From: Oligoflexia bacterium
GTDB lineage: Bacteria > Bdellovibrionota > Bdellovibrionia > JABDDW01
Assembly: GCA_023250675.1 (NCBI GenBank)
Contig: JAHFAE010000002.1
Coordinates: 7,491 to 71,490, forward strand
Direction: 5' to 3'
DNA length: 64,000 nucleotides
Below, one piece after another: positions 3,875-51,517 of the stretch (its first letter is position 1; every line of letters starts with the position of its first letter). Below the pieces are notes generated by a model. The model saw only the letters and a list, made by a program, of their open reading frames with translations. It was not told where the DNA came from and ran no database searches. A program made the position numbers and the translations under genes.

Positions 3875-5227
3875 TTAGTTGAGGCTGGTCCCTTTTATTA
3901 CTTCAACACTATTGGCAATATCCCAAAGATAAGTCTGATATAGATCGCGAATAATACTTGGTCGGGTGGTAAAGAGCATAGTCTCAATGTGTTTATCCCA
4001 TGAATTTGGCGAGGCATTGTAGGTTCCTGCTCCTCCCTCACCGATGTAAATGGAGGGCTCCTGGCCGATTTTTAGAGCCTCCGAAGTCTCTCGTCGCAAA
4101 AGTAAAAAGGCTTTTGCATGCATGGGACCTTTGGGGCCAGAATACTCATAAAGATGGGCCGGATTGTTTGATGAGAGAGTGAGAAGGGGGCCATAGGACT
4201 GCCTTGCTTCACGATACAATTTATTGGCAATGACCCGTCTTGTGAGGGGTTCAAAAATAAAAAACAGCTGTTTGACTAAATTTTCTTTTGAATTAGAAAG
4301 AATCGTAATCTTAACTCCTCGTTTTGCAGCACCTCGCAATGCTTTCAAATGGGGTGGTTGAACTCTAAAAGAAAAAGATTGCCAATATATTTGATCTCCT
4401 GCTTTCGCACTATCGATGAGCTGGGCAATCTTATCATTTATTGGTGTTTGCCCATTTCTTAACCAAGGGGCCTGCAAGTAAAATTCGTCGTTAAAATCTT
4501 GGGGTACTTGAGAATAGTCATATATTTTTTTTGCAGTTCCAGTGCACTTTGTGATTTTTTTTAATGTGTCAAAGACCCAATAAAATTCTTGGGAAACTTT
4601 TTGAGCTATGGGCCCAGAAACGTAGATGTCCGTATCTCTCCACGATTGAACATGTTTTGATTTACCAAGCATCCAGTTATAACCGCCAGTAAAAACATGC
4701 CAACCATCAACAACCATTACTTTTGCATGACTTAATTTTTCTAAATTAATGGTCCATATGGCTTTTAATGATTTTTTGGCAAATTCGAAGAAATAAGGAG
4801 GTGTACCAAAAAAACGAATATCCACCCCGGCTTTTATCATGCGATGAATTTCGGCACGGGTGGTGGGAGGATTACCCCAATAATCAGTAAATACCTTTAC
4901 TTCAATACCTGCTCGGTGTTTTTCGATTAATATATCGGCAAGACTTTTACCTATTTCGTCGTGGGCGTACCATGCGTCAGGTTTAATGGTAAAAGTTGAA
5001 ATGAGAATGGAGTATTTGGCGTGTTTCAAAACTTCAAATTTATGCTTAAACGTTTCGTCAGCCGAAGTGTAAATGGCCGCATTTGAGGTAAGCTGAGTCC
5101 CCTCTATTCTCACGGCGGAGCCTGTAACATTCAAATTTTCTCGGCAATCGGACCCCGAAGAAAAGGCCGTTTCTCCATGGGACTGGAGAAAGAGCACACT
5201 TAACAAGACTTGAACTAAACTTTTCAT
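3875..5227 (-). CDS. Secreted phospholipase D family protein (HKD superfamily). The first HKD motif is intact; the second is divergent.
   Basis: Signal peptide MKSLVQVLLSVLFLQSHG. HAKVMVVDGWHVFTGGYN matches HxKxxxxDxxxxxxGGxN. Second copy reads MHAKAFLLL...GEGGAGTYN. Confidence 0.65.
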   Translation of the reverse strand: MKSLVQVLLSVLFLQSHGETAFSSGSDCRENLNVTGSAVRIEGTQLTSNAAIYTSADETFKHKFEVLKHAKYSILISTFTIKPDAWYAHDEIGKSLADILIEKHRAGIEVKVFTDYWGNPPTTRAEIHRMIKAGVDIRFFGTPPYFFEFAKKSLKAIWTINLEKLSHAKVMVVDGWHVFTGGYNWMLGKSKHVQSWRDTDIYVSGPIAQKVSQEFYWVFDTLKKITKCTGTAKKIYDYSQVPQDFNDEFYLQAPWLRNGQTPINDKIAQLIDSAKAGDQIYWQSFSFRVQPPHLKALRGAAKRGVKITILSNSKENLVKQLFFIFEPLTRRVIANKLYREARQSYGPLLTLSSNNPAHLYEYSGPKGPMHAKAFLLLRRETSEALKIGQEPSIYIGEGGAGTYNASPNSWDKHIETMLFTTRPSIIRDLYQTYLWDIANSVEVIKGTSLN

Positions 5228-27135: not shown

Positions 27136-29256
27136 ATGTCCACTTACACTCGAAAGTTAGTATATGCAGCGGCCCTCAGCTTGAGCGGAATCGCGGCCAC
27201 TTTCGGTTGGTACAATTATGACCTAGCTCGTTCTCAACGATCCGATAATTCTCAAAAAACTCTCTTAGGACAAATTGCTTCTGCAAAAAATGAAGTTCAA
27301 AAAAGACAAAAGGGAAGAGTCATTTGGAAGCGCGTTGAAGAACAAGAGCAACTCTTTGCAGGGGAAGCAGTTCGAACTTCTTCTGATAGTGAGGCAAAAA
27401 TAAAATTTAATTCGGGAGCCGAAGTTGATTTAGATCCCGATTCTGTCGTCACTATTGCAAATGAAGGCGACAAACCTAATTTGGACTTTGTGCAGGGGAA
27501 TATCTTTGTAAAAGGCGGCGCCGAAGCTGATTCTCTTGCACTTAAATCAGGTGAAACAAAGATTGATATTAAAAACGCTAATGTGTCATTAGGTTCTTCA
27601 GGAGGAAAAACAGCAGTTCAGGTTTTGAGTGGCACAGCTCTTGTTACAAATGGAGACAAGAAAATCACCTTGGATCAAACCCATTCTGGCGATATTGGAT
27701 CAAACGGGGTGAACATTTCACAAAAATTACTAAACGTTTTAAAACCATTAGCGAATGACCGAATCTACATTCGTTTTGATAAAAAAGAATCAAGTGTATT
27801 TGCGTGGGCGCCAATTTCTGCTGATTATGATGTTCGAATTGAAATGGGACAAAAAAGAGAATTGCTAAAACCAGTAGGGGATTTGGTGGCGGGCTCAAAA
27901 GGTTCTGTGAATATGGCGCTAAAACCAGGTACCCAATACTGGCGGTTTGTCGCTACAAATAAGAAAAACCCCCAGGAAATAAGTTATTCTTCGATAAATA
28001 AACTTGTAGTTATTGCAAACGTGCCACCCCACCTGCTTGCTCCGTCGGCTGATTCTCTCGTGACTCTATCGTCAGATACAAAGAACTTAGAGTTTCGCTG
28101 GGCCAATCCGGCACGTCTTATAAATCTTCATCTTGATGTTGCGAAGGACCCTGGTTTTCAAACTTCGATTTTTTCAGAAGAAATTGAAGACACCGGGCAA
28201 AAAGCTATTACGCCCGAAGACGATGGCGATTATTATTGGCGTATTATCGGTTTTCAGCCCGAGACCAATGTCAAAATTGAAAGTATGGCTCAAAAATTTA
28301 CGTTTAAAACCAAATATGAACTTGTTCCGCCTGAACTAAAACTTCCCGCTACAGAAACGACACTTTCGTTTGACAAAGTAGCCACCGGTGCGGTGTTTCT
28401 CGTTTGGAATCCTCAACCAGGTGCCACCGGTTACTCAGTTCATATAGAAGAAGAAAACAAAAAAGGTGGTTTTGCCATCGACAAAGAAGTGAGTGACACA
28501 ATCGCCAAGATTCCACAAGATGCCAAGCCCGGTCAATACAAGTGGTATGTAGTTTCAATGGATACTGAAGGTCGAAAATCTACTCCAAGTAAATCTAGAA
28601 TTTTTAAGATTCAAGATGTTCCCAAAATCGAATGGTCTGACAATAGAATGCAAGAGAATTATTTTTATATAACATCAAATCCAAGTTTTAAAGTTTCTTT
28701 CAAACCGCCAGCAAAAACTGGAGGAGTGGGTCCCCATCACTTCAAAGTTTTTTATCGCGTCGAGGGGACAGAAAAACCAGAAAGTATGCTGGTGCCAGGT
28801 CCCGTGGATCAAATCCTTAAAGTTTCTAGCAATGGTTTATACCATGTGTTTATCGAAGAGTTTGATTCTAAAGAAAATCTTATGAGTAAATCCGATGTGC
28901 GAGATGTGGTGGTAGAACCAAAGCCATTATTACCAGCACCCCAGTTCGCAGCGCGTATGCCAGCTGCAGTGCAGGCTTCAAAAAATGGCACGGCGCCCTT
29001 AGCTTGGAATCCTGTGGCCGGGGCAAGGGCTTATCTTGTTCAACTTAAAGATGAGAGTGGCAAGGTCAGAAAAGAAGAAAAATTTACGTCTGATTCTGTT
29101 GTAATGAAAAACTTATTACCGGGGCAATATAAATTAACAGTGAGTTCCGTAGATGAACATGGACGATCGGGACCATCAAGTGAAGAAAGGGCACTCAAAG
29201 TACCAGAGGTGAGCGATTTGAAGCCGCCTCAGTTTAAAAAATTTAAAATTCATTAA
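27136..29256 (+). CDS. Membrane-anchored envelope protein: N-terminal TM helix, a FecR-like domain, then multiple Fn3-like repeats.
   Basis: TM helix LVYAAALSLSGIAATFGWY. FecR-like region VIWKRVEEQEQLFAGEAVRTSSDSEAKIKFNSGAEVDLDPDSVVTI. Repeated W-x-P-x-x-GA-x-x-Y Fn3 signatures (LVWNPQPGATGYSVHI, LAWNPVAGARAYLVQL). Confidence 0.5.
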   Translation: MSTYTRKLVYAAALSLSGIAATFGWYNYDLARSQRSDNSQKTLLGQIASAKNEVQKRQKGRVIWKRVEEQEQLFAGEAVRTSSDSEAKIKFNSGAEVDLDPDSVVTIANEGDKPNLDFVQGNIFVKGGAEADSLALKSGETKIDIKNANVSLGSSGGKTAVQVLSGTALVTNGDKKITLDQTHSGDIGSNGVNISQKLLNVLKPLANDRIYIRFDKKESSVFAWAPISADYDVRIEMGQKRELLKPVGDLVAGSKGSVNMALKPGTQYWRFVATNKKNPQEISYSSINKLVVIANVPPHLLAPSADSLVTLSSDTKNLEFRWANPARLINLHLDVAKDPGFQTSIFSEEIEDTGQKAITPEDDGDYYWRIIGFQPETNVKIESMAQKFTFKTKYELVPPELKLPATETTLSFDKVATGAVFLVWNPQPGATGYSVHIEEENKKGGFAIDKEVSDTIAKIPQDAKPGQYKWYVVSMDTEGRKSTPSKSRIFKIQDVPKIEWSDNRMQENYFYITSNPSFKVSFKPPAKTGGVGPHHFKVFYRVEGTEKPESMLVPGPVDQILKVSSNGLYHVFIEEFDSKENLMSKSDVRDVVVEPKPLLPAPQFAARMPAAVQASKNGTAPLAWNPVAGARAYLVQLKDESGKVRKEEKFTSDSVVMKNLLPGQYKLTVSSVDEHGRSGPSSEERALKVPEVSDLKPPQFKKFKIH

Positions 29257-29261
29257 TTAAA

Positions 29262-30959
29262 ATGAAAATGTCATGGATGTCATTGATTACGATTTTAACG
29301 TTGTCTTGTCTGTTCAGCCCGCGCAGTTATGCCGAACTACCTCGGCGTGCTTTAGAATTGGAACTAGAAGCGGTCACGGGAGTTTCAGGTTACGAAATCC
29401 AAGTTATTCGAATCTTAGAAAATAATAAACGTAAACCGCCAGTACTTTTCAAAATTAAAACAACCACTTGGCGTGCGAAACTTGTTCCGGGTCGCTATGA
29501 ACTTCGCGTTCGATCATTGGATTCCAGAGAAGTTCCAGGGGAGTGGAGTGAATCTCAAGATTTTATCGTCAAACTTCCTCCCGCAACTTTGACTAAGCCC
29601 TCAACAGATGAAGTAGTAATGTCAGATCAAACTGAGAAAGAAAAAGTAAATTTTCAATGGCAGCCGGTAGAAGGTGCTGAAAAATATAAGTTAAGAATTC
29701 TAGATTCAAAGGGTTCTATGGTTCTTGAAACCATGGAAAAAGACTCCAGCGTAAGAGTTGAGCTCCCTGTCGGCAAAACATACAGTTGGATTCTTATCCC
29801 TGTTATGCCTGGGGATTTAGAAGGGGAGGCCAATGAACCGGCTAATCCGTTTCAACTTCATGGTGGAAAATTGAAACCTCCTAAAATTGGAGCTGTCGAT
29901 GATACAAACACCGAAGATTTTGAGTGGGCCGAACACTCCCTTGCCGATGAGTTTTCAATAAAAATTGAAAAAAGGGACTTAAAAGGAAATTGGATTGCAC
30001 ATTACGAAGCTAATAAAATTTCTGGGACCAAACATAAGACCGATAAAATTCTTCCGACAGGCAAGTACAGAGTCTTATTGTCTTGCGTGAGCAAAATGTG
30101 GCAAGAATCTGAATTTTCCATGAAGGAATTCAGTACTCGCGATTTAGGTACGAGAGCTCCTGCCGCCATTGAACAGATAAAAGCCGAGGCAAGTTACGAT
30201 TCAAAGAGTCGCATCTTTGCAGTAGCAAGTTATTATTTTTCGTCTATCGATTTTAGCAGTAAGAATGCAGATGTTGGTAATGAGACTAAATTTAACGCAA
30301 TCAGCGGCACGGGGAGATTGGGAGTGGGAACTTGGTTTGGCGATGATTCAAAATGGGGTGCATTGTTGACGGCTGATCTATCTGGAATTCAAATTGCGAA
30401 TTCTGGTTCAACGCAAACCTCCACCTATGCATCGGCTGCAATACTTGGGGTTTACAGAATGCGGCTTGAATCCATTGGTCAGCTTAGATTTTATATGGGA
30501 TTAGACTATAAAGAATTACCTGAGACGGTGAAGAAACCAGGAAGTCAAATCCAAATTGTCCAAAGAAAGATCACCACTGCGGGTCCAAGTTTAGGCGTTG
30601 GTTTCTATCATGGGTTTAGTCAGAACATCGGCATTCAATTTAACTTAGGACTACGTCATTCTACATTGGGATTAAGCACGCCTGAGTCCGCACGATCTGC
30701 ACTCGGCATCTCCCCAAATGGGGGCAATAATGGGGCAACAGATTCAAGTGGCCATGGTTCTAACATTGGCCGCGTTAGTTATCAAGGCGGCGTTCTAGGT
30801 TCTCTAAAGTTAAAGACCGGCCTCGTAGGATTTCTCGGTTACGTCTATCGAGTAGAAAACGCTGCGTATACGACAACCTCCGGTTCTCGCGGAATTGGCG
30901 ACAACTCCGTTTCTCTGACCGGCCATTATCTGAACCTCATGTTAGAGTACGGCTTCTAA
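29262..30959 (+). CDS. Secreted protein with N-terminal Fn3-like repeats and a C-terminal outer-membrane beta-barrel (ends ...LEYGF).
   Basis: Signal peptide. Fn3 signatures (FQWQPVEGAEKYKLRI). C-terminal alternating hydrophobic beta-strand pattern and a terminal aromatic residue typical of OMPs. Confidence 0.5.
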   Translation: MKMSWMSLITILTLSCLFSPRSYAELPRRALELELEAVTGVSGYEIQVIRILENNKRKPPVLFKIKTTTWRAKLVPGRYELRVRSLDSREVPGEWSESQDFIVKLPPATLTKPSTDEVVMSDQTEKEKVNFQWQPVEGAEKYKLRILDSKGSMVLETMEKDSSVRVELPVGKTYSWILIPVMPGDLEGEANEPANPFQLHGGKLKPPKIGAVDDTNTEDFEWAEHSLADEFSIKIEKRDLKGNWIAHYEANKISGTKHKTDKILPTGKYRVLLSCVSKMWQESEFSMKEFSTRDLGTRAPAAIEQIKAEASYDSKSRIFAVASYYFSSIDFSSKNADVGNETKFNAISGTGRLGVGTWFGDDSKWGALLTADLSGIQIANSGSTQTSTYASAAILGVYRMRLESIGQLRFYMGLDYKELPETVKKPGSQIQIVQRKITTAGPSLGVGFYHGFSQNIGIQFNLGLRHSTLGLSTPESARSALGISPNGGNNGATDSSGHGSNIGRVSYQGGVLGSLKLKTGLVGFLGYVYRVENAAYTTTSGSRGIGDNSVSLTGHYLNLMLEYGF

Positions 30960-31018
30960 GGTGCCAGGCACCTTTTCCGCAAATATAGAGGTGCCTGCTG
31001 GTTTTTCCGCAAATGTAG
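30957..31018. repeat. REP-like doublet (left copy): palindrome GGTGCC(A/T)GGCACC plus two direct TTTTCCGCAAAT(A/G)TAG units. Inverted relative to the copy at 32441-32505.
   Basis: The reverse complement matches the 32441-32505 copy at about 57/60 positions. Lies immediately after the stop of the upstream gene. Confidence 0.75.
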
Positions 31019-31669: not shown

Positions 31670-32410
31670 ATGTCCGAAATTGTCCGACGTGGATTCGGAC
31701 ACTTTATGCTCAATATACCATATATTTCATTTGGGAAGTTGGTACGCTTTGCATTGTCGATTCGCATGACGAGAAAATTGGCAGTTACTTCTGAGTATTT
31801 CCCTTTTCATATTACCGCACGCACGGTGAACAGAGACCTTTTTCCTATTCCACTACCAATCCTTTGGCAAGTTTATGAAAACTACCTTTACTATATACAC
31901 TTGGCATACGGGACAAAATTACTTTCATTTGTATTAATGCCAAATCACTTTCATCTACTAGCTCAATTTCCAAAAGGTAACATGAGCGAAACAATGGGTT
32001 TTTTCATGGGCGAAACAAGTAGGCGGGTTGGGGAAAAATCCGGGCGGATAAACCAATTGTATGGTGGCCGTTACCATCGCTCTCTCATATCTAATGAGAT
32101 TTATTTTAGGCACGCATATAAGTATGTCTACAGTAATCCAGTAAGAGCAAATTTAGTAAATAGAGTGGAGGACTATCCATTCTCAAGCTTGCACGGCTTG
32201 TTAGGCAGACGCACACTCGTAATTCCGATTGAAGAAGATACTTTGCTTTTTAATCAAGAATTCAGTTGGAAAACAGTGAACTGGCTGAATCGAAATCCCC
32301 AAAAAACCCATTTGGAAGAGGTTCGTTGTGCGCTTCGCAAAAAGTCATTTTCACTTCCCATAAACAAATTTACAAGAATTCCTAGTCAATTAGAACATCA
32401 AGATTTTTGA
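31670..32410 (+). CDS. REP-associated tyrosine transposase (RAYT / TnpA_REP, IS200-IS605 Y1 HuH family). The true start may be the internal Met at about 31766.
   Basis: HuH motif NHFHLL. RAYT motifs YGGRYHRSLI (compare wqrRFwdH) and YVYSNPVRANLVNRVEDYPFSS (compare YIHxNPVKxGLVxxxxDWPWSS). Flanked by inverted REP doublets. Confidence 0.75.
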   Translation: MSEIVRRGFGHFMLNIPYISFGKLVRFALSIRMTRKLAVTSEYFPFHITARTVNRDLFPIPLPILWQVYENYLYYIHLAYGTKLLSFVLMPNHFHLLAQFPKGNMSETMGFFMGETSRRVGEKSGRINQLYGGRYHRSLISNEIYFRHAYKYVYSNPVRANLVNRVEDYPFSSLHGLLGRRTLVIPIEEDTLLFNQEFSWKTVNWLNRNPQKTHLEEVRCALRKKSFSLPINKFTRIPSQLEHQDF

Positions 32411-32440: not shown

Positions 32441-32505
32441 CCCTATATTTGCGGAAAAACCAGCAGGCACCTCTATATTTGCGGAAAAGGTGCCTGGCAC
32501 CTAGG
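32441..32505. repeat. REP-like doublet (right copy), inverted relative to 30957-31018.
   Basis: CCCTATATTTGCGGAAAAACCAGCAGGCACCTCTATATTTGCGGAAAAGGTGCCTGGCACCTAGG. Abuts the stop of the downstream minus-strand gene. Confidence 0.75.
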
Positions 32506-45401: not shown

Positions 45402-45470
45402 GGCCTTATATTTGCGGAAAAACCACCAGGCACCTCTATATTTGCGGAAAAGGTGCCTGGCACCTAGGCC
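45402..45470. repeat. Solo REP-like doublet, same family and orientation as the 32441-32505 copy, filling the spacer between convergent genes.
   Basis: GCCTTATATTTGCGGAAAAACCACCAGGCACCTCTATATTTGCGGAAAAGGTGCCTGGCACCTAGGCCC. Near-identical to the right REP of the RAYT locus. Confidence 0.75.
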
Positions 45471-47113: not shown

Positions 47114-48361
47114 ATGAAAATAAACTCGATGTTAATGAAAAAATATTCTTATCCTAAAGCTTCTATAAAGATATTGTTGGCAGAAAACATTCATTCTGTG
47201 GCCCATGATCGATTGAAAGCAGAGGGATTTTCTGTAGAAGGGGTTAAGCAAGCCCTTGGAGAATCAGAACTCATCTCTAAGACTCAAGATGTTCACGTGC
47301 TTGGAATACGATCGAAAACTCAAATTTCACCGAAGGCGGTTCGTGAGTCGAAGAAGCTTTTGAGTATTGGCTGTTTTTGTATTGGCACAAACCAGGTAGA
47401 TCTAGAAGCAGCTCGGCTTCAAGGAATACCAGTTTTCAATGCGCCTTTTAGCAATACGCGAAGTGTGGCCGAAATGGTAATGGCAGAGATAGTCATGCTG
47501 TCGCGGCAAATAGGTGATCGAAACACTCAATTGCATAATGGTAAATGGGATAAATCAGCAGCGGGCTGCTATGAGATTCGGGGTAAGTGTTTAGGAATAA
47601 TCGGGTATGGTCATATAGGTTCCCAAGTCAGTATACTCGCCGAGAGTTTCGGGATGAAAGTTAACTATTTTGATATTGTTACAAAAATGCCCTTGGGAAA
47701 TGGACGTCAGATTGGATCGCTTGAAGAGCTCTTGGCCCAATCAGATTTTGTAACTCTTCATGTCCCTGAAACTCCACAAACAAAAAATATGGTTGGACCT
47801 CAGCAACTAAAATCTATGAAGGCAGGGAGCTTTTTAATTAATGCAAGTCGAGGTACAGTTGTAGATCTTAGAGCTTTGAAACAATCACTCGTATCAGGGT
47901 ATACGGCTGGAGCGGCTCTTGATGTTTTTCCGGAGGAACCAGAAAGTAATGATGACATTTTTAAGTGTGAACTTCAAAATGTGCCCAATGTCATCTTGAC
48001 CCCCCATATTGGTGGAAGTACCGAAGAGGCCCAAGAAAATATTGGCATTGAAGTTTCAATGAGCCTTATTAAGTTTATCAATAATGGCAGCACAACGGGT
48101 TCAGTGAATTTTCCCCAAGTTGATTTGCCCGTTCACCAATCAAGCCATAGGATTTTGAATATTCATAAAAACGTCCCCGGAGTTTTAAAAGACATTAACA
48201 GAATTATTTCTGATCTTGGTGCCAATATTCAAGGTCAGTATCTTTCGACAGATCCTGAAATTGGATACCTCATTGTGGACCTAGATAAGCAAGTTTCTGA
48301 TAAAGTTAAGGAACAAATTTCTATTTTGCCAACAAGTATTAGAACAAGAATTTTGTACTAA
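47114..48361 (+). CDS. serA: D-3-phosphoglycerate dehydrogenase (long form with C-terminal ACT domain).
   Basis: 2-hydroxyacid dehydrogenase NAD-binding GIIGYGHIGSQV. About 410-aa architecture with a C-terminal regulatory domain, as in E. coli SerA. Confidence 0.75.
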   Translation: MKINSMLMKKYSYPKASIKILLAENIHSVAHDRLKAEGFSVEGVKQALGESELISKTQDVHVLGIRSKTQISPKAVRESKKLLSIGCFCIGTNQVDLEAARLQGIPVFNAPFSNTRSVAEMVMAEIVMLSRQIGDRNTQLHNGKWDKSAAGCYEIRGKCLGIIGYGHIGSQVSILAESFGMKVNYFDIVTKMPLGNGRQIGSLEELLAQSDFVTLHVPETPQTKNMVGPQQLKSMKAGSFLINASRGTVVDLRALKQSLVSGYTAGAALDVFPEEPESNDDIFKCELQNVPNVILTPHIGGSTEEAQENIGIEVSMSLIKFINNGSTTGSVNFPQVDLPVHQSSHRILNIHKNVPGVLKDINRIISDLGANIQGQYLSTDPEIGYLIVDLDKQVSDKVKEQISILPTSIRTRILY

Positions 48362-48409
48362 CTCGCAGTAAGGCCCATCTCAACTTTATCTTGCAAGTGT
48401 TTCATAAAT

Positions 48410-48546
48410 TTTATGAGTATGAATTAGAAAATTTAATCCCCTTCGCCAAAAGGTCGCGCATCCATGCGCTCAAGCTCGGCAAGATCCCTCCGGGGCCGTA
48501 GCCCTTAAGCTGCAGGGATTGAAATTTTCTAATTCATACTCATAAA
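48410..48546. repeat. Long imperfect inverted repeat (~32-bp AT-rich arms) enclosing a ~70-bp GC-rich core with nested palindromes. Candidate structured RNA, MITE-like element or complex bidirectional terminator.
   Basis: Left arm TTTATGAGTATGAATTAGAAAATTTAATCCCC. Right arm GCAGGGATTGAAATTTTCTAATTCATACTCATAAA. Core contains GCGCATCCATGCGC and CCGGGGCCGTAGCCC. Confidence 0.5.
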
Positions 48547-48612
48547 GACTAGTACAGCCTTTGTAAAAACAAAGTCTCGATAGGTACTTTATTTTGCGAG
48601 AAAAAGTAAAGT

Positions 48613-50079
48613 CTAAAACACTTTGCCGGGATTCATAATTTCGTTGGGATCTAGGTCTTGTTTGATTTTTTTCATTATGCCAATTTCAAGAGGCGATCGC
48701 GTGTAATGTAAGAAGTCCTTCTTTGTTAAACCGATTCCATGCTCTGCTGAAATACTCCCACCATATTTTTTAACTAATTCAAACATTGAGACATCTGATT
48801 TTTTAGCATGGGCAAAGAATTCGTCTTTAGACATTTTTTCAGGTTTCGTAAAATTCACATGAAGGTTGCCATCGCCAATATGGCCAAAAATAACAGCTTC
48901 AAACCCAGGGTATTTAGAAGAAATAATTTCTTGAAGATCCGTACAAAACGGAGTGATTTTTGAAAGTGGTAAGGAAATATCATTTTTATGTGCTACCGTC
49001 AGTGCAGAGAGACTCTCGGCAATATTTTCTCTTAACCCCCAAAAATCCTGGTCTTGCTGTGAACTTTGGCTTAAAACTCCGTCTACGATTATTTTTTCGT
49101 CAAAGGCTTTTTGCACAAACTGTTCTAAATACCCCTCGGTTTTATCACTTATTTTTTCAACCTCGATGAGTGTGTAAAAGGGGTGGAGTTTAGAAAATGG
49201 CGATTTTAATTTTGTATGTTCCTGAACTCGCAAAAGTCCAAAACTCGTAAACATTTCGTATGCTGTGAGAGGTAATGCCATTTTTTGAGTGAGCTCAAAG
49301 AGAGAAGTAATGTCTTCTAGTTTATTCAACGCAAACAAACAAACCATAAGTTCTTTTGGAGGCGTTGTAAGATTCATGATAACTTCAGTAATAATTCCCA
49401 ACGTCCCTTCGCTACCGATAAACAAATGTTTGAGGTCATACCCCGTATTGTTTTTTACGCAGGCGTTGGTCAGTTCAAGAATACTACCGTCTGCCAAAAC
49501 AACTTTAAGGCCCGAAACCCATTGCCGAATGAGGCCATAGCGAATGACCTTTATACCCCCGGCATTTGTCGCCACATTGCCGCCAATATGACTACTTCCA
49601 CTTGACGCAAAATCCACCGGAAAATACAGCCCTGCATCTACCGCCGCTCGTTGAAGTTCTTTTGTCACAACACCGGCTTGGCAATGAATAGTTTTTTCAA
49701 CGGGATTAACGCCAAATATTCCATTCATTTTAGATGTTGAAATGACGACCTCTTGACGAGCCGCGACGGCACCGCCACTTAGGCCCGTTCGGCCCCCTGA
49801 AGGCACTACTGAAATCTTTTTTTGATTACAAAATTGAAGAATCTTAGAAACCTCTTGAGTGGTTTTAGGAAAAACCGCTGCAAGTGGCGAAGGGGTGTAG
49901 GCCTTTGTGTAATCTTTAGCCCAAGCTTTGGCCTCTTCACCGGTTACCACTTGCGTGGTACCAACTATGGATCGAAATACATCTAAAACTTCACTCATGG
50001 AGCTAGTTTCTACCAAATATATGACGGGTGTCAAAAGGATAGACAGGGAGAAACACCCAAAGGAGCCATCGTATGGCAT
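48613..50079 (-). CDS. FAD-linked oxidase (GlcD / D-lactate dehydrogenase-like, FAD_binding_4 + FAD-oxidase_C).
   Basis: 488 aa with a GGRTGLSGGAV FAD-binding motif. C-terminal HGIGL-like motif AEHGIGLTKK. Confidence 0.65.
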   Translation of the reverse strand: MPYDGSFGCFSLSILLTPVIYLVETSSMSEVLDVFRSIVGTTQVVTGEEAKAWAKDYTKAYTPSPLAAVFPKTTQEVSKILQFCNQKKISVVPSGGRTGLSGGAVAARQEVVISTSKMNGIFGVNPVEKTIHCQAGVVTKELQRAAVDAGLYFPVDFASSGSSHIGGNVATNAGGIKVIRYGLIRQWVSGLKVVLADGSILELTNACVKNNTGYDLKHLFIGSEGTLGIITEVIMNLTTPPKELMVCLFALNKLEDITSLFELTQKMALPLTAYEMFTSFGLLRVQEHTKLKSPFSKLHPFYTLIEVEKISDKTEGYLEQFVQKAFDEKIIVDGVLSQSSQQDQDFWGLRENIAESLSALTVAHKNDISLPLSKITPFCTDLQEIISSKYPGFEAVIFGHIGDGNLHVNFTKPEKMSKDEFFAHAKKSDVSMFELVKKYGGSISAEHGIGLTKKDFLHYTRSPLEIGIMKKIKQDLDPNEIMNPGKVF

Positions 50080-50568: not shown

Positions 50569-51517
50569 GATCTAATTGCTTCTGCAAGTCTTGAAGTTCT
50601 GAAAGCCAATATTTATATGTGTTAAATTCAGGAAAAGCCCTAGGAAACGCCGGATCATCCCATCTTTTTGCTATCCATGCTGAATAATGGATAAATCGAA
50701 GTGCTCTTAGAGGTTCGATGAGGCGAAGCGATGCCATTTCAAACTCTCGCATCTCGCAGTATCCCTTCAAAAATATCTCCCTGTCGCGCTTCCCTTGTTC
50801 GTCACTTCCCCCTGCGATAAGCCAAATATCTTGAACTGGTGGGCCAATGACCATGTCATCAAAATCTAAGAAAAATGGACCATCACCATTGTAAAGCAGA
50901 TTGCCCATATGACAATCGCCATGGATTCTCTGGACATGGATATTTTCAAACCATGGAGCAATGAGATCTACCAGTTCAATAACTTTTGCTTTGTATTGAC
51001 TCGCCAATTCCATGGGCAAAAATCCCTTTTCATCTAAAAACTTAAGAGGTGCTAAGCCATAAGTTTGAGGTGTCAGTGCCATTCGATGTTGCGCGCTCTT
51101 TGAAGCGCCAACCGTATGAAGCCGACCTAAAAACCGTCCCAATTGCAAATATTGTTGTTGATCTAATTCTTGAGGAACCCTGCCCCTCACTTTCGGGAAT
51201 ACGGCAAAAAGAATTCCACTTGCAGTTTTACCAATGGTGGAGCTATTGCCCATAACCATTGGCTGTGCCACAGGTATCTCTGCTTTAGCAAGATCACCTA
51301 AAAACCCATGTTCTTCCAAAATAGCTTCTTTGGTCCAACGATTGGGCCGATAGAATTTTCCGACGAAACGATTTTCGTCTTCCATCTCCACTTCGTAAAC
51401 TCTATTTTCAAGGCTGTTAAGTGCAAAACATCGACCAGTTGAACGAAACCCGATAGCTTCGACGGCCTCCAAAATATGTTGGGGCGTTAGCTCAAAGAAA
51501 TTATTTTGACTCACCAC
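50537..51517 (-). CDS. srkA: Stress response serine/threonine kinase SrkA (YihE/RdoA family).
   Basis: N-terminal LTPQHILEAVEAIGFRSTGRCFALNSLENRVYEV and aminoglycoside-phosphotransferase-like catalytic motifs (HGDCHMGNLL, DFDD). Confidence 0.75.
   Translation of the reverse strand: MVSQNNFFELTPQHILEAVEAIGFRSTGRCFALNSLENRVYEVEMEDENRFVGKFYRPNRWTKEAILEEHGFLGDLAKAEIPVAQPMVMGNSSTIGKTASGILFAVFPKVRGRVPQELDQQQYLQLGRFLGRLHTVGASKSAQHRMALTPQTYGLAPLKFLDEKGFLPMELASQYKAKVIELVDLIAPWFENIHVQRIHGDCHMGNLLYNGDGPFFLDFDDMVIGPPVQDIWLIAGGSDEQGKRDREIFLKGYCEMREFEMASLRLIEPLRALRFIHYSAWIAKRWDDPAFPRAFPEFNTYKYWLSELQDLQKQLDLIRQGNCHQN

Follow-up and report, generated by a model that had tools for sequence, protein, structure and literature searches.

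A 137-bp foldback in the spacer between convergent serA and FAD-oxidase genes of an Oligoflexia bacterium: a possible MITE-like element within a lineage-specific insertion

The serA/FAD-oxidase locus

The 137-bp element described here lies at positions 48410-48546 of the window (the whole stretch of 64,000 nucleotides that was analysed), between two convergently oriented genes, i.e. serA, which encodes D-3-phosphoglycerate dehydrogenase, and a gene encoding an FAD-linked oxidase. The initial annotation gave the position, the sequence and this convergent setting correctly, and the Pfam domains of the two products agree with it. Alignment to the relatives L007 and L008 places the start of serA at M8 of the listed open reading frame (ORF); the C-terminus of its product (...TRILY*) is the same as in these relatives, the last residue included, and that of the oxidase (...NPGKVF*) is conserved to the final residue as well. 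The features of the locus are as follows.

47135..48361, + strand: serA, D-3-phosphoglycerate dehydrogenase, 408 aa, with the Pfam domains 2-Hacid_dh, 2-Hacid_dh_C and ACT
48358..48361: left CTAA of a 4-bp direct repeat, made up of the C of the last Tyr codon and the TAA stop of serA
48362..48612: lineage-specific insert of 251 bp, which is the entire intergenic spacer and is missing from syntenic relatives
48383..48397, + strand: ACTTTATCTTGCAAG, the left-hand member of a pair of 15-nt direct repeats
48410..48440: left foldback arm, 23% GC; its outer 25 nt, TTTATGAGTATGAATTAGAAAATTT, recur without mismatch in the right arm
48441..48514: core, 74 nt, 62% GC, without significant structure of its own and with no homologue found
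48515..48546: right foldback arm, 25% GC, in which G48521 is bulged
48556..48577: small AT-rich hairpin in the right flank, AGCCTTTGT-AAAA-ACAAAGTCT, an inverted repeat without a terminator call
48586..48612: small AT-rich hairpin, ACTTTATTTT-GCGAGAA-AAAGTAAAGT, adjoining the oxidase stop codon
48613..48616: right CTAA of the 4-bp direct repeat, made up of the reverse-strand TAG stop of the oxidase and the base that opens its final Phe codon
48613..49998, - strand: FAD-linked oxidase gene, 461 aa, with the Pfam domains FAD_binding_4 and FAD-oxidase_C

The foldback is placed off centre in the 251-bp spacer, 48 bp from its left end and 66 bp from its right end. The hairpin at 48586..48612 begins with the right-hand 15-nt direct repeat (ACTTTATTTTGCGAG, 48586-48600), which is identical to the left copy at 13 of 15 positions, a match that none of 2000 shuffles equalled in an ungapped test (P=0.0055 by local alignment). 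The two copies stand on either side of the foldback, and neither adjoins it. The termini of the 251-bp spacer are not inverted repeats, the only motif found being the internal ACTTT(A/T)TCT(T/C)GCAA (P=0.038), and the only candidates for a repeat at the foldback's own ends, TA/TA or TCATAAA, are ambiguous.

The inverted repeat and its core

The inverted arms (48410-48440 and 48515-48546) form a 31-bp stem that encloses the 74-nt core. The perfect part of the stem consists of 25 pairs (48410-48434 with 48522-48546), which are followed by the bulged G48521 and then by six more pairs, so that the foldback reads TTTATGAGTATGAATTAGAAAATTT-A-ATCCC ... GGGAT-TG-AAATTTTCTAATTCATACTCATAAA. The AT-rich inverted arms of the initial annotation are thereby borne out, as 31 Watson-Crick pairs with a single bulge. 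The pairs are 12 T-A, 12 A-T, four G-C and three C-G, with no G-U pair among them, which points to a repeat at the level of the DNA, for instance transposase-binding ends or a recent inverted duplication, rather than to an evolved RNA helix. A repeat finder extends the arms to as much as 44 nt at 82% complementarity. Not one of 100 dinucleotide shuffles of the window contained a 32-mer match as close as that of the arms, and among the local inverted repeats of the window the foldback is by far the longest. It also folds far better than its shuffles do, with z = -8.3 as RNA on each strand and z = -9.1 as DNA.

The core alone, on the other hand, is unremarkable, with z scores of -0.49 and -0.48 and with 56 and 54 of 200 shuffles folding equally well. 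Small palindromes exist in it as first described (GCGCA-TCCA-TGCGC at 48456-48469 and GGGC-CGTA-GCCC at 48493-48504), but they are what is expected by chance in a GC-rich 74-mer, and as the core folds like its shuffles, its description as internally palindromic amounts to no more than chance. Its GC content is 62%, not the 65% first given, and that of the window is 41.3%, against the 40% that had been stated for the genome. Since 70-bp windows of at least 60% GC form 17 stretches in the window, the GC richness of the core is not in itself unusual. The only ORFs of the element encode 36 aa and 23 aa and have no protein homologues. The exceptional part of the element is thus the arms only; an inverted repeat of this kind inside a lineage-specific insertion is real and statistically striking.

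The spacer in syntenic relatives

The gene order around the locus, i.e. Trx-TPR, AMP-binding, serA, the convergent FAD oxidase, APH and MFS, is kept in five lineages of Bdellovibrionota/Oligoflexia, and in three of these five the stop codons of serA and the oxidase gene abut or overlap by 4 bp. In L007 the two stops abut with 0 bp between them, while the stops of L008/L009 and L026-L030 share 4 bp, TTAA. If positions 48362-48612 and one CTAA are removed from the window, the stop overlap is restored to the base; the resulting junction, ATTTTGTACTAAAACACTTTGCC, is colinear with that of L027, ATTTTGTATTAAAACACTTTCCC, and the left CTAA (48358..48361) has its counterpart in the single TTAA stop overlap of L008 and L027. 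The comparison of relatives for presence or absence, which the initial annotation had proposed as a check, therefore yields the same gene order with no spacer, and so points to an insertion. The unfilled junction was found, in a comparison between lineages, in relatives whose serA is 73-79% identical; the closest serA proteins are at most 79% identical, those with a name belonging to metagenome-assembled genomes (MAGs) of Oligoflexia, Bacteriovoracaceae or Bdellovibrionota, and two neighbouring proteins encoded in the window form singleton clusters at 90% identity.

Taken together, the empty site in relatives and the CTAA...CTAA pair show that the entire spacer of 251 bp was inserted specifically in this lineage, the alignment of filled and empty sites being that of an insertion flanked by a 4-bp target duplication. 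That CTAA should stand on both sides through a coincidence of codons and stops is hardly to be expected, at an estimated chance of about 5%, a few percent, which is the authors' own reckoning rather than the output of a tool. The corresponding empty-site allele would read ...TTGTACTAAAACAC.... As the stops overlap in relatives, the serA/oxidase pair evidently needs no device at its junction.

An independent sequence is available for part of the spacer. The Logan contig L010 (1.3 kb, SRR14366787) carries an identical serA, left flank, left arm and half of the core before it ends, and is identical to the window for 119 nt beyond serA.

Other sequences are found at the same junction elsewhere. 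In L012 (GCA_016715815.1, an Oligoflexia MAG), two small ORFs occupy it at 4231-4969, encoding a 123-aa FA_hydroxylase fragment and 111 aa, respectively, which resemble a fatty-acid hydroxylase gene that was split or has decayed; that the spacer of the window is a decayed copy of these ORFs was rejected on comparison. In L013 (Logan SRR8424004, serA 73% identical), the spacer is 403 bp long and contains at 4272-4451 an 18-nt inverted repeat (CCGGCTTCTTCGGAAGTA / TACTTCCGAAAAAGCCGG, 144 nt apart) with a weak fold (z = -2.6); its sequence is unrelated to that of the 137-bp element, and kinship between the two was likewise rejected. The contig P0002 carries yet another gene there. The different and unrelated contents of L012, L013 and P0002 indicate that the serA/oxidase junction has been invaded repeatedly.

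Search for further copies

A second copy of the arms or of the core, which the initial annotation had suggested looking for, was found nowhere in the 64-kb window, so that the element is present there as a single copy; apparent matches to arm 11-mers at 4142-4299 fall within the coding sequence of a PLD-like gene and were dismissed as chance. Scans of the GTDB species representatives, the JGI metagenomes and IMG/VR with the arm 20-mer GAGTATGAATTAGAAAATTT returned isolated matches without a second arm, mostly in a coding-like context (translating to EYELENL), and these too were set aside as chance. Core 20- and 21-mers identified no relative in viral (IMG/VR) and JGI metagenome contigs, the single 21-nt core match in the viral contig L011 being attributed to chance. 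It should be kept in mind that these seed scans need 20 exact bases. The comparison of the spacer with plasmids and phages (blastn, distant setting) gave only noise at E>=0.2. All six reading frames of the element were translated and compared with 5.8 billion predicted proteins to detect spurious ORFs over further copies, and none was found; this search needs shared 5-residue words. No transposase with matching ends was found in the window.

Tests for RNA genes, terminators and recombination sites

Rfam 15 gave no match at the gathering score over the whole window, ribozymes, Y RNA, HEARO and CRISPR repeats included, and at E<=10 over 48300-48650 the best sub-threshold scores, E=1.9 and E=9.9, are meaningless; the latter, a match to CRISPR-DR10, was put down to noise, there being no tandem array. 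The Rfam scan proposed at the outset thus matched no family even at this relaxed threshold. A tRNA/tmRNA scan found none, and neither strand of 48362-48612 contains a sigma-70-like promoter or an intrinsic-terminator-like site. With no Rfam match, a core unstructured beyond chance and no promoter or terminator consensus, the idea of a structured RNA, one of those first put forward, is not upheld.

The stem has an A-T rich base, after which comes AAAGAC on the + strand or AAAATTTATG on the - strand; with no U-tract on either strand and no GC-rich stem, the foldback lacks what makes an intrinsic (rho-independent) terminator. The attC boxes RYYYAAC / GTTRRRY are absent from its ends, which read TTTATGAG...CTCATAAA. 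Among the window ORFs longer than 120 aa, Pfam (E<=1e-5) detected no integrase or DDE-transposase domain, the only transposase-like match being that of the RAYT-like Y1 gene described below. There is no turn of the GC skew at the site of the kind that a terminus or dif site would suggest.

The RAYT-like gene and other repeats of the window

At 31670-32410 (+ strand), a gene encodes a 246-aa IS200-like Y1 transposase, which scores 29.9 bits with Pfam Y1_Tnp and 74.1 bits (E=1e-20) with NCBIfam REP_Tyr_transpos, just under the cut-off of 80. The protein seems to represent a lone transposase of the domesticated type, in a genome that is Oligoflexia-like. The window also contains a family of repeats of about 62 nt, with the following copies.

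30956-31018, - strand: copy of the 62-nt repeat
32443-32505, + strand: copy of the 62-nt repeat
45406-45468, + strand: copy of the 62-nt repeat

The unit is CTAYATTTGCGGAAAA-ACCASCAGGCACCT-CTATATTTGCGGAAAA-GGTGCCTGGCACCT, with an internal 16-nt direct repeat and a GC-rich hairpin of 9-10 bp, and the copies at 32443 and 45406 are 90% identical over 80 nt. Each of the three occupies a spacer that separates convergent genes, either at a neighbouring stop codon or close to one, and two of them flank the RAYT-like gene in inverted orientation. Repeat copies flanking a RAYT gene constitute the classical RAYT/REP arrangement (PMC3116915), and the 62-nt repeat is likely the cognate REP of the RAYT-like gene. 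The 62-nt family is a genuine interspersed one and serves as an example of true repeats in this genome; the 137-bp element does not belong to it. The only sign of kinship between the spacer and the repeat, TAT-TTTGCGAGAAAAA in the hairpin 48586..48612, is weak (P=0.034) and was judged unconvincing.

Two further repeats were encountered. In L007 (JGI 3300010230), the closest relative, a 26-bp hairpin (96% complementary, 13-nt loop, no obvious U-tract) occurs at 281-345 between convergent Trx-TPR and phytochelatin-synthase-like genes. In the window itself, a 31-nt direct repeat, AATTGCTTCTGCAA...GAAGTTC..AAA, is present at 27273-27303 and 50574-50604 with 81% identity between the copies, as reported by the repeat finder only.

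Comparison with known elements

The Correia elements of Neisseria (CREE/NEMIS) are non-coding and intergenic, about 100-200 bp long, with terminal inverted repeats (TIRs) of about 26 bp; their transcripts form a long hairpin that is cleaved by RNase III at the TIRs, and they number more than 100 per genome (PMC10969869). The element studied here resembles them in its size, its non-coding and intergenic nature, the length of its TIRs and the long hairpin predicted for a transcript, and the TA that bounds the foldback on both sides would fit a TA duplication. Unlike them, it has been seen in a single copy, shares no sequence similarity with them and has a GC-rich interior, and its sole clear duplication is one of 4 bp (CTAA), located 48 and 66 bp outside the inverted repeat. 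The ERIC/IRU elements of the Enterobacteriaceae are imperfect palindromes of about 127 bp found in transcribed intergenic regions, often at the 3' ends of genes, where they change mRNA stability, 3' insertions having an RNase E effect; the family is conserved, with 30 to 700 copies (PMC10969869). The element is likewise a palindrome of similar size in an intergenic region at gene 3' ends, but no relative of it was found in the GTDB representatives, JGI metagenomes, plasmids and phages.

REPINs are inverted doublets of REP sequences; in ssDNA or mRNA their conserved ends form a hairpin by pairing across a spacer that is less conserved (PMC3116915). The foldback has inverted ends around a spacer too, and a RAYT-like gene is encoded in the same window; however, its arms are without REP features (a palindrome of their own, GTAG), and a target duplication is present. 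The combination that marks a REP or REPIN, the same repeat flanking a RAYT gene and occurring in many copies, is not seen for these arms.

More generally, prokaryotic miniature inverted-repeat elements (MITEs) as defined in the literature fit the size, TIR length, intergenic site and stable transcript hairpin of the element (PMC10969869, sections 2.1, 3.3). The element measures 137 bp (251 bp with its flanks) and has no coding capacity, where MITEs are below 500 bp; its inverted ends are 25 bp long where perfect, or 31 bp with one bulge, where MITE TIRs are about 4-30 bp; and an empty site exists in relatives. MITEs are usually AT-rich (PMC10969869), and in this respect the GC-rich interior is atypical. 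The most defining feature of MITEs is their multi-copy status, and a single copy is present in the 64 kb.

IS5 makes a 4-bp target duplication of the form YTAR, a pattern that the CTAA...CTAA flanking the insert presumably matches. The 251-bp insert, however, has no inverted repeats at its ends, which do not seem to resemble those of IS5; no IS5-family transposase was detected by Pfam among the window ORFs longer than 120 aa.

Interpretation and alternative explanations

The absence of the spacer from relatives, together with the 4-bp duplication, favours the foldback or MITE type among the readings first offered, although the second copy that would go with it was not found in any of the sequences searched. 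We consider that the 137-bp element is, with about an even chance, a MITE-like inserted foldback that is now probably inert. According to this model, the 251-bp DNA (48362-48612), with the 137-bp element at its centre, would have been inserted in this lineage at the site where the stop codons of serA and the FAD-oxidase gene overlap by the 4 bp YTAA, and the insertion would have duplicated these 4 bp (CTAA...CTAA), leaving the exact ends of both genes; owing to the duplication, an insertion into overlapping stops would have left both genes intact. The anatomy would be that of a small non-autonomous foldback transposon, i.e. short, non-coding and intergenic, with complementary AT-rich arms of 25-31 bp and an interior that seems foreign in composition and without structure of its own. 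Read-through from either convergent gene would be expected to fold the element into the 31-bp stem, which, by analogy with Correia and ERIC elements, might be a target of RNase III, an obstacle to 3' exonucleases or a hindrance to convergent read-through. A one-step MITE insertion does not fit neatly, as the duplication flanks a 251-bp spacer without inverted termini and the foldback is internal to it, and a nested or multi-step history is likely. We infer that the element may be mobile, may have such a history and may affect the mRNA.

A rather less probable explanation is that the foldback is a non-mobile 3' hairpin serving both convergent genes, either by blocking or insulating transcription in both directions or by stabilising the 3' ends of the mRNAs, in which case the arms would have arisen by a local inverted duplication within the inserted DNA and then been kept by selection. 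The exact position between two convergent stops and the equally good folding of both strands would suit such a role, and hairpin-bearing sequences do occur at other convergent junctions of this genome (the 62-nt repeat at 32443-32505 and 45406-45468) and in a relative (the 26-bp hairpin of L007 at 281-345). Against it, the stem base is almost pure A-T, neither strand has a U-tract past the stem and no terminator was called; relatives with overlapping stops and no spacer show that the device is unneeded; and the 4-bp duplication indicates an insertion. RNase III, moreover, cleaves perfect RNA duplexes of 25 bp, which do not look like typical terminators. It is improbable that the element is instead of the REPIN type, with inverted conserved ends around a poorly conserved spacer, moved as ssDNA by another RAYT, even though a RAYT-like gene lies 16 kb away (31670-32410) and the layout of inverted ends pairing around a spacer resembles that of a REPIN. 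The repeat that flanks this gene belongs to a different family, the 62-nt CTATATTTGCGGAAAA...GGTGCCTGGCACCT unit with its three copies; the arms of the 137-bp element are absent from the gene and from elsewhere in the window, are not themselves palindromic and lack GTAG; and the NCBIfam score of the gene product is under the curated cut-off of 80. Y1 transposition, as in IS200/IS605, leaves no target duplication, unlike what is seen at this site.

We regard it as still more doubtful that the element is the gene of a novel structured small RNA, in which a long helix would close a three-hairpin junction. The very stable fold (z = -8.3) and the GC-rich core within an AT-rich spacer speak for such a gene, but there is no Rfam match at the gathering score or at E<=10, the core is no more structured than its shuffles, the helix has neither G-U pairs nor mismatches and is equally good on both strands, the spacer has no promoter- or terminator-like site, and the absence of the element from all relatives means that it offers neither conservation nor covariation. 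Very unlikely, finally, is a DNA site for recombination or protein binding (attC-like, Xer/dif-like or a cruciform), or an artefact of assembly. The foldback does share with the bottom strands of attC sites a long imperfect palindrome containing a bulged base, and the assembly is from an uncultured lineage with proteins that are singletons at 90% identity; independent sequence, in the Logan contig, covers just the left arm and half of the core. Yet the ends carry no RYYYAAC / GTTRRRY boxes, the window ORFs longer than 120 aa encode no integrase or recombinase domain besides the RAYT-like Y1 transposase, and the GC skew does not turn at the site; as for an artefact, the Logan contig reproduces 119 nt beyond serA identically, and two intact ORF ends with a clean 4-bp duplication would not be expected from one.

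Conclusions

The element is of a known general kind, and there is no evidence of a new mechanism. It is a long shot that the foldback is the first-seen member of an undescribed family of mobile hairpins of uncultured Oligoflexia/Bdellovibrionota, or else a new structured RNA. Such a family would carry foreign GC-rich cargo and target YTAA at overlapping convergent stops, its target duplication would preserve both genes, and it would act as a selfish transcription insulator. The practical value of the present analysis is one of annotation, in that the element is neither a terminator or riboswitch nor any known small RNA, and is dispensable in relatives. If the MITE-like element were confirmed to be mobile, it would be the first of the MITE type described for a poorly sampled phylum of predatory bacteria, and would provide a tidy case of a harmless insertion, in which the target duplication regenerated both of the overlapping stop codons.
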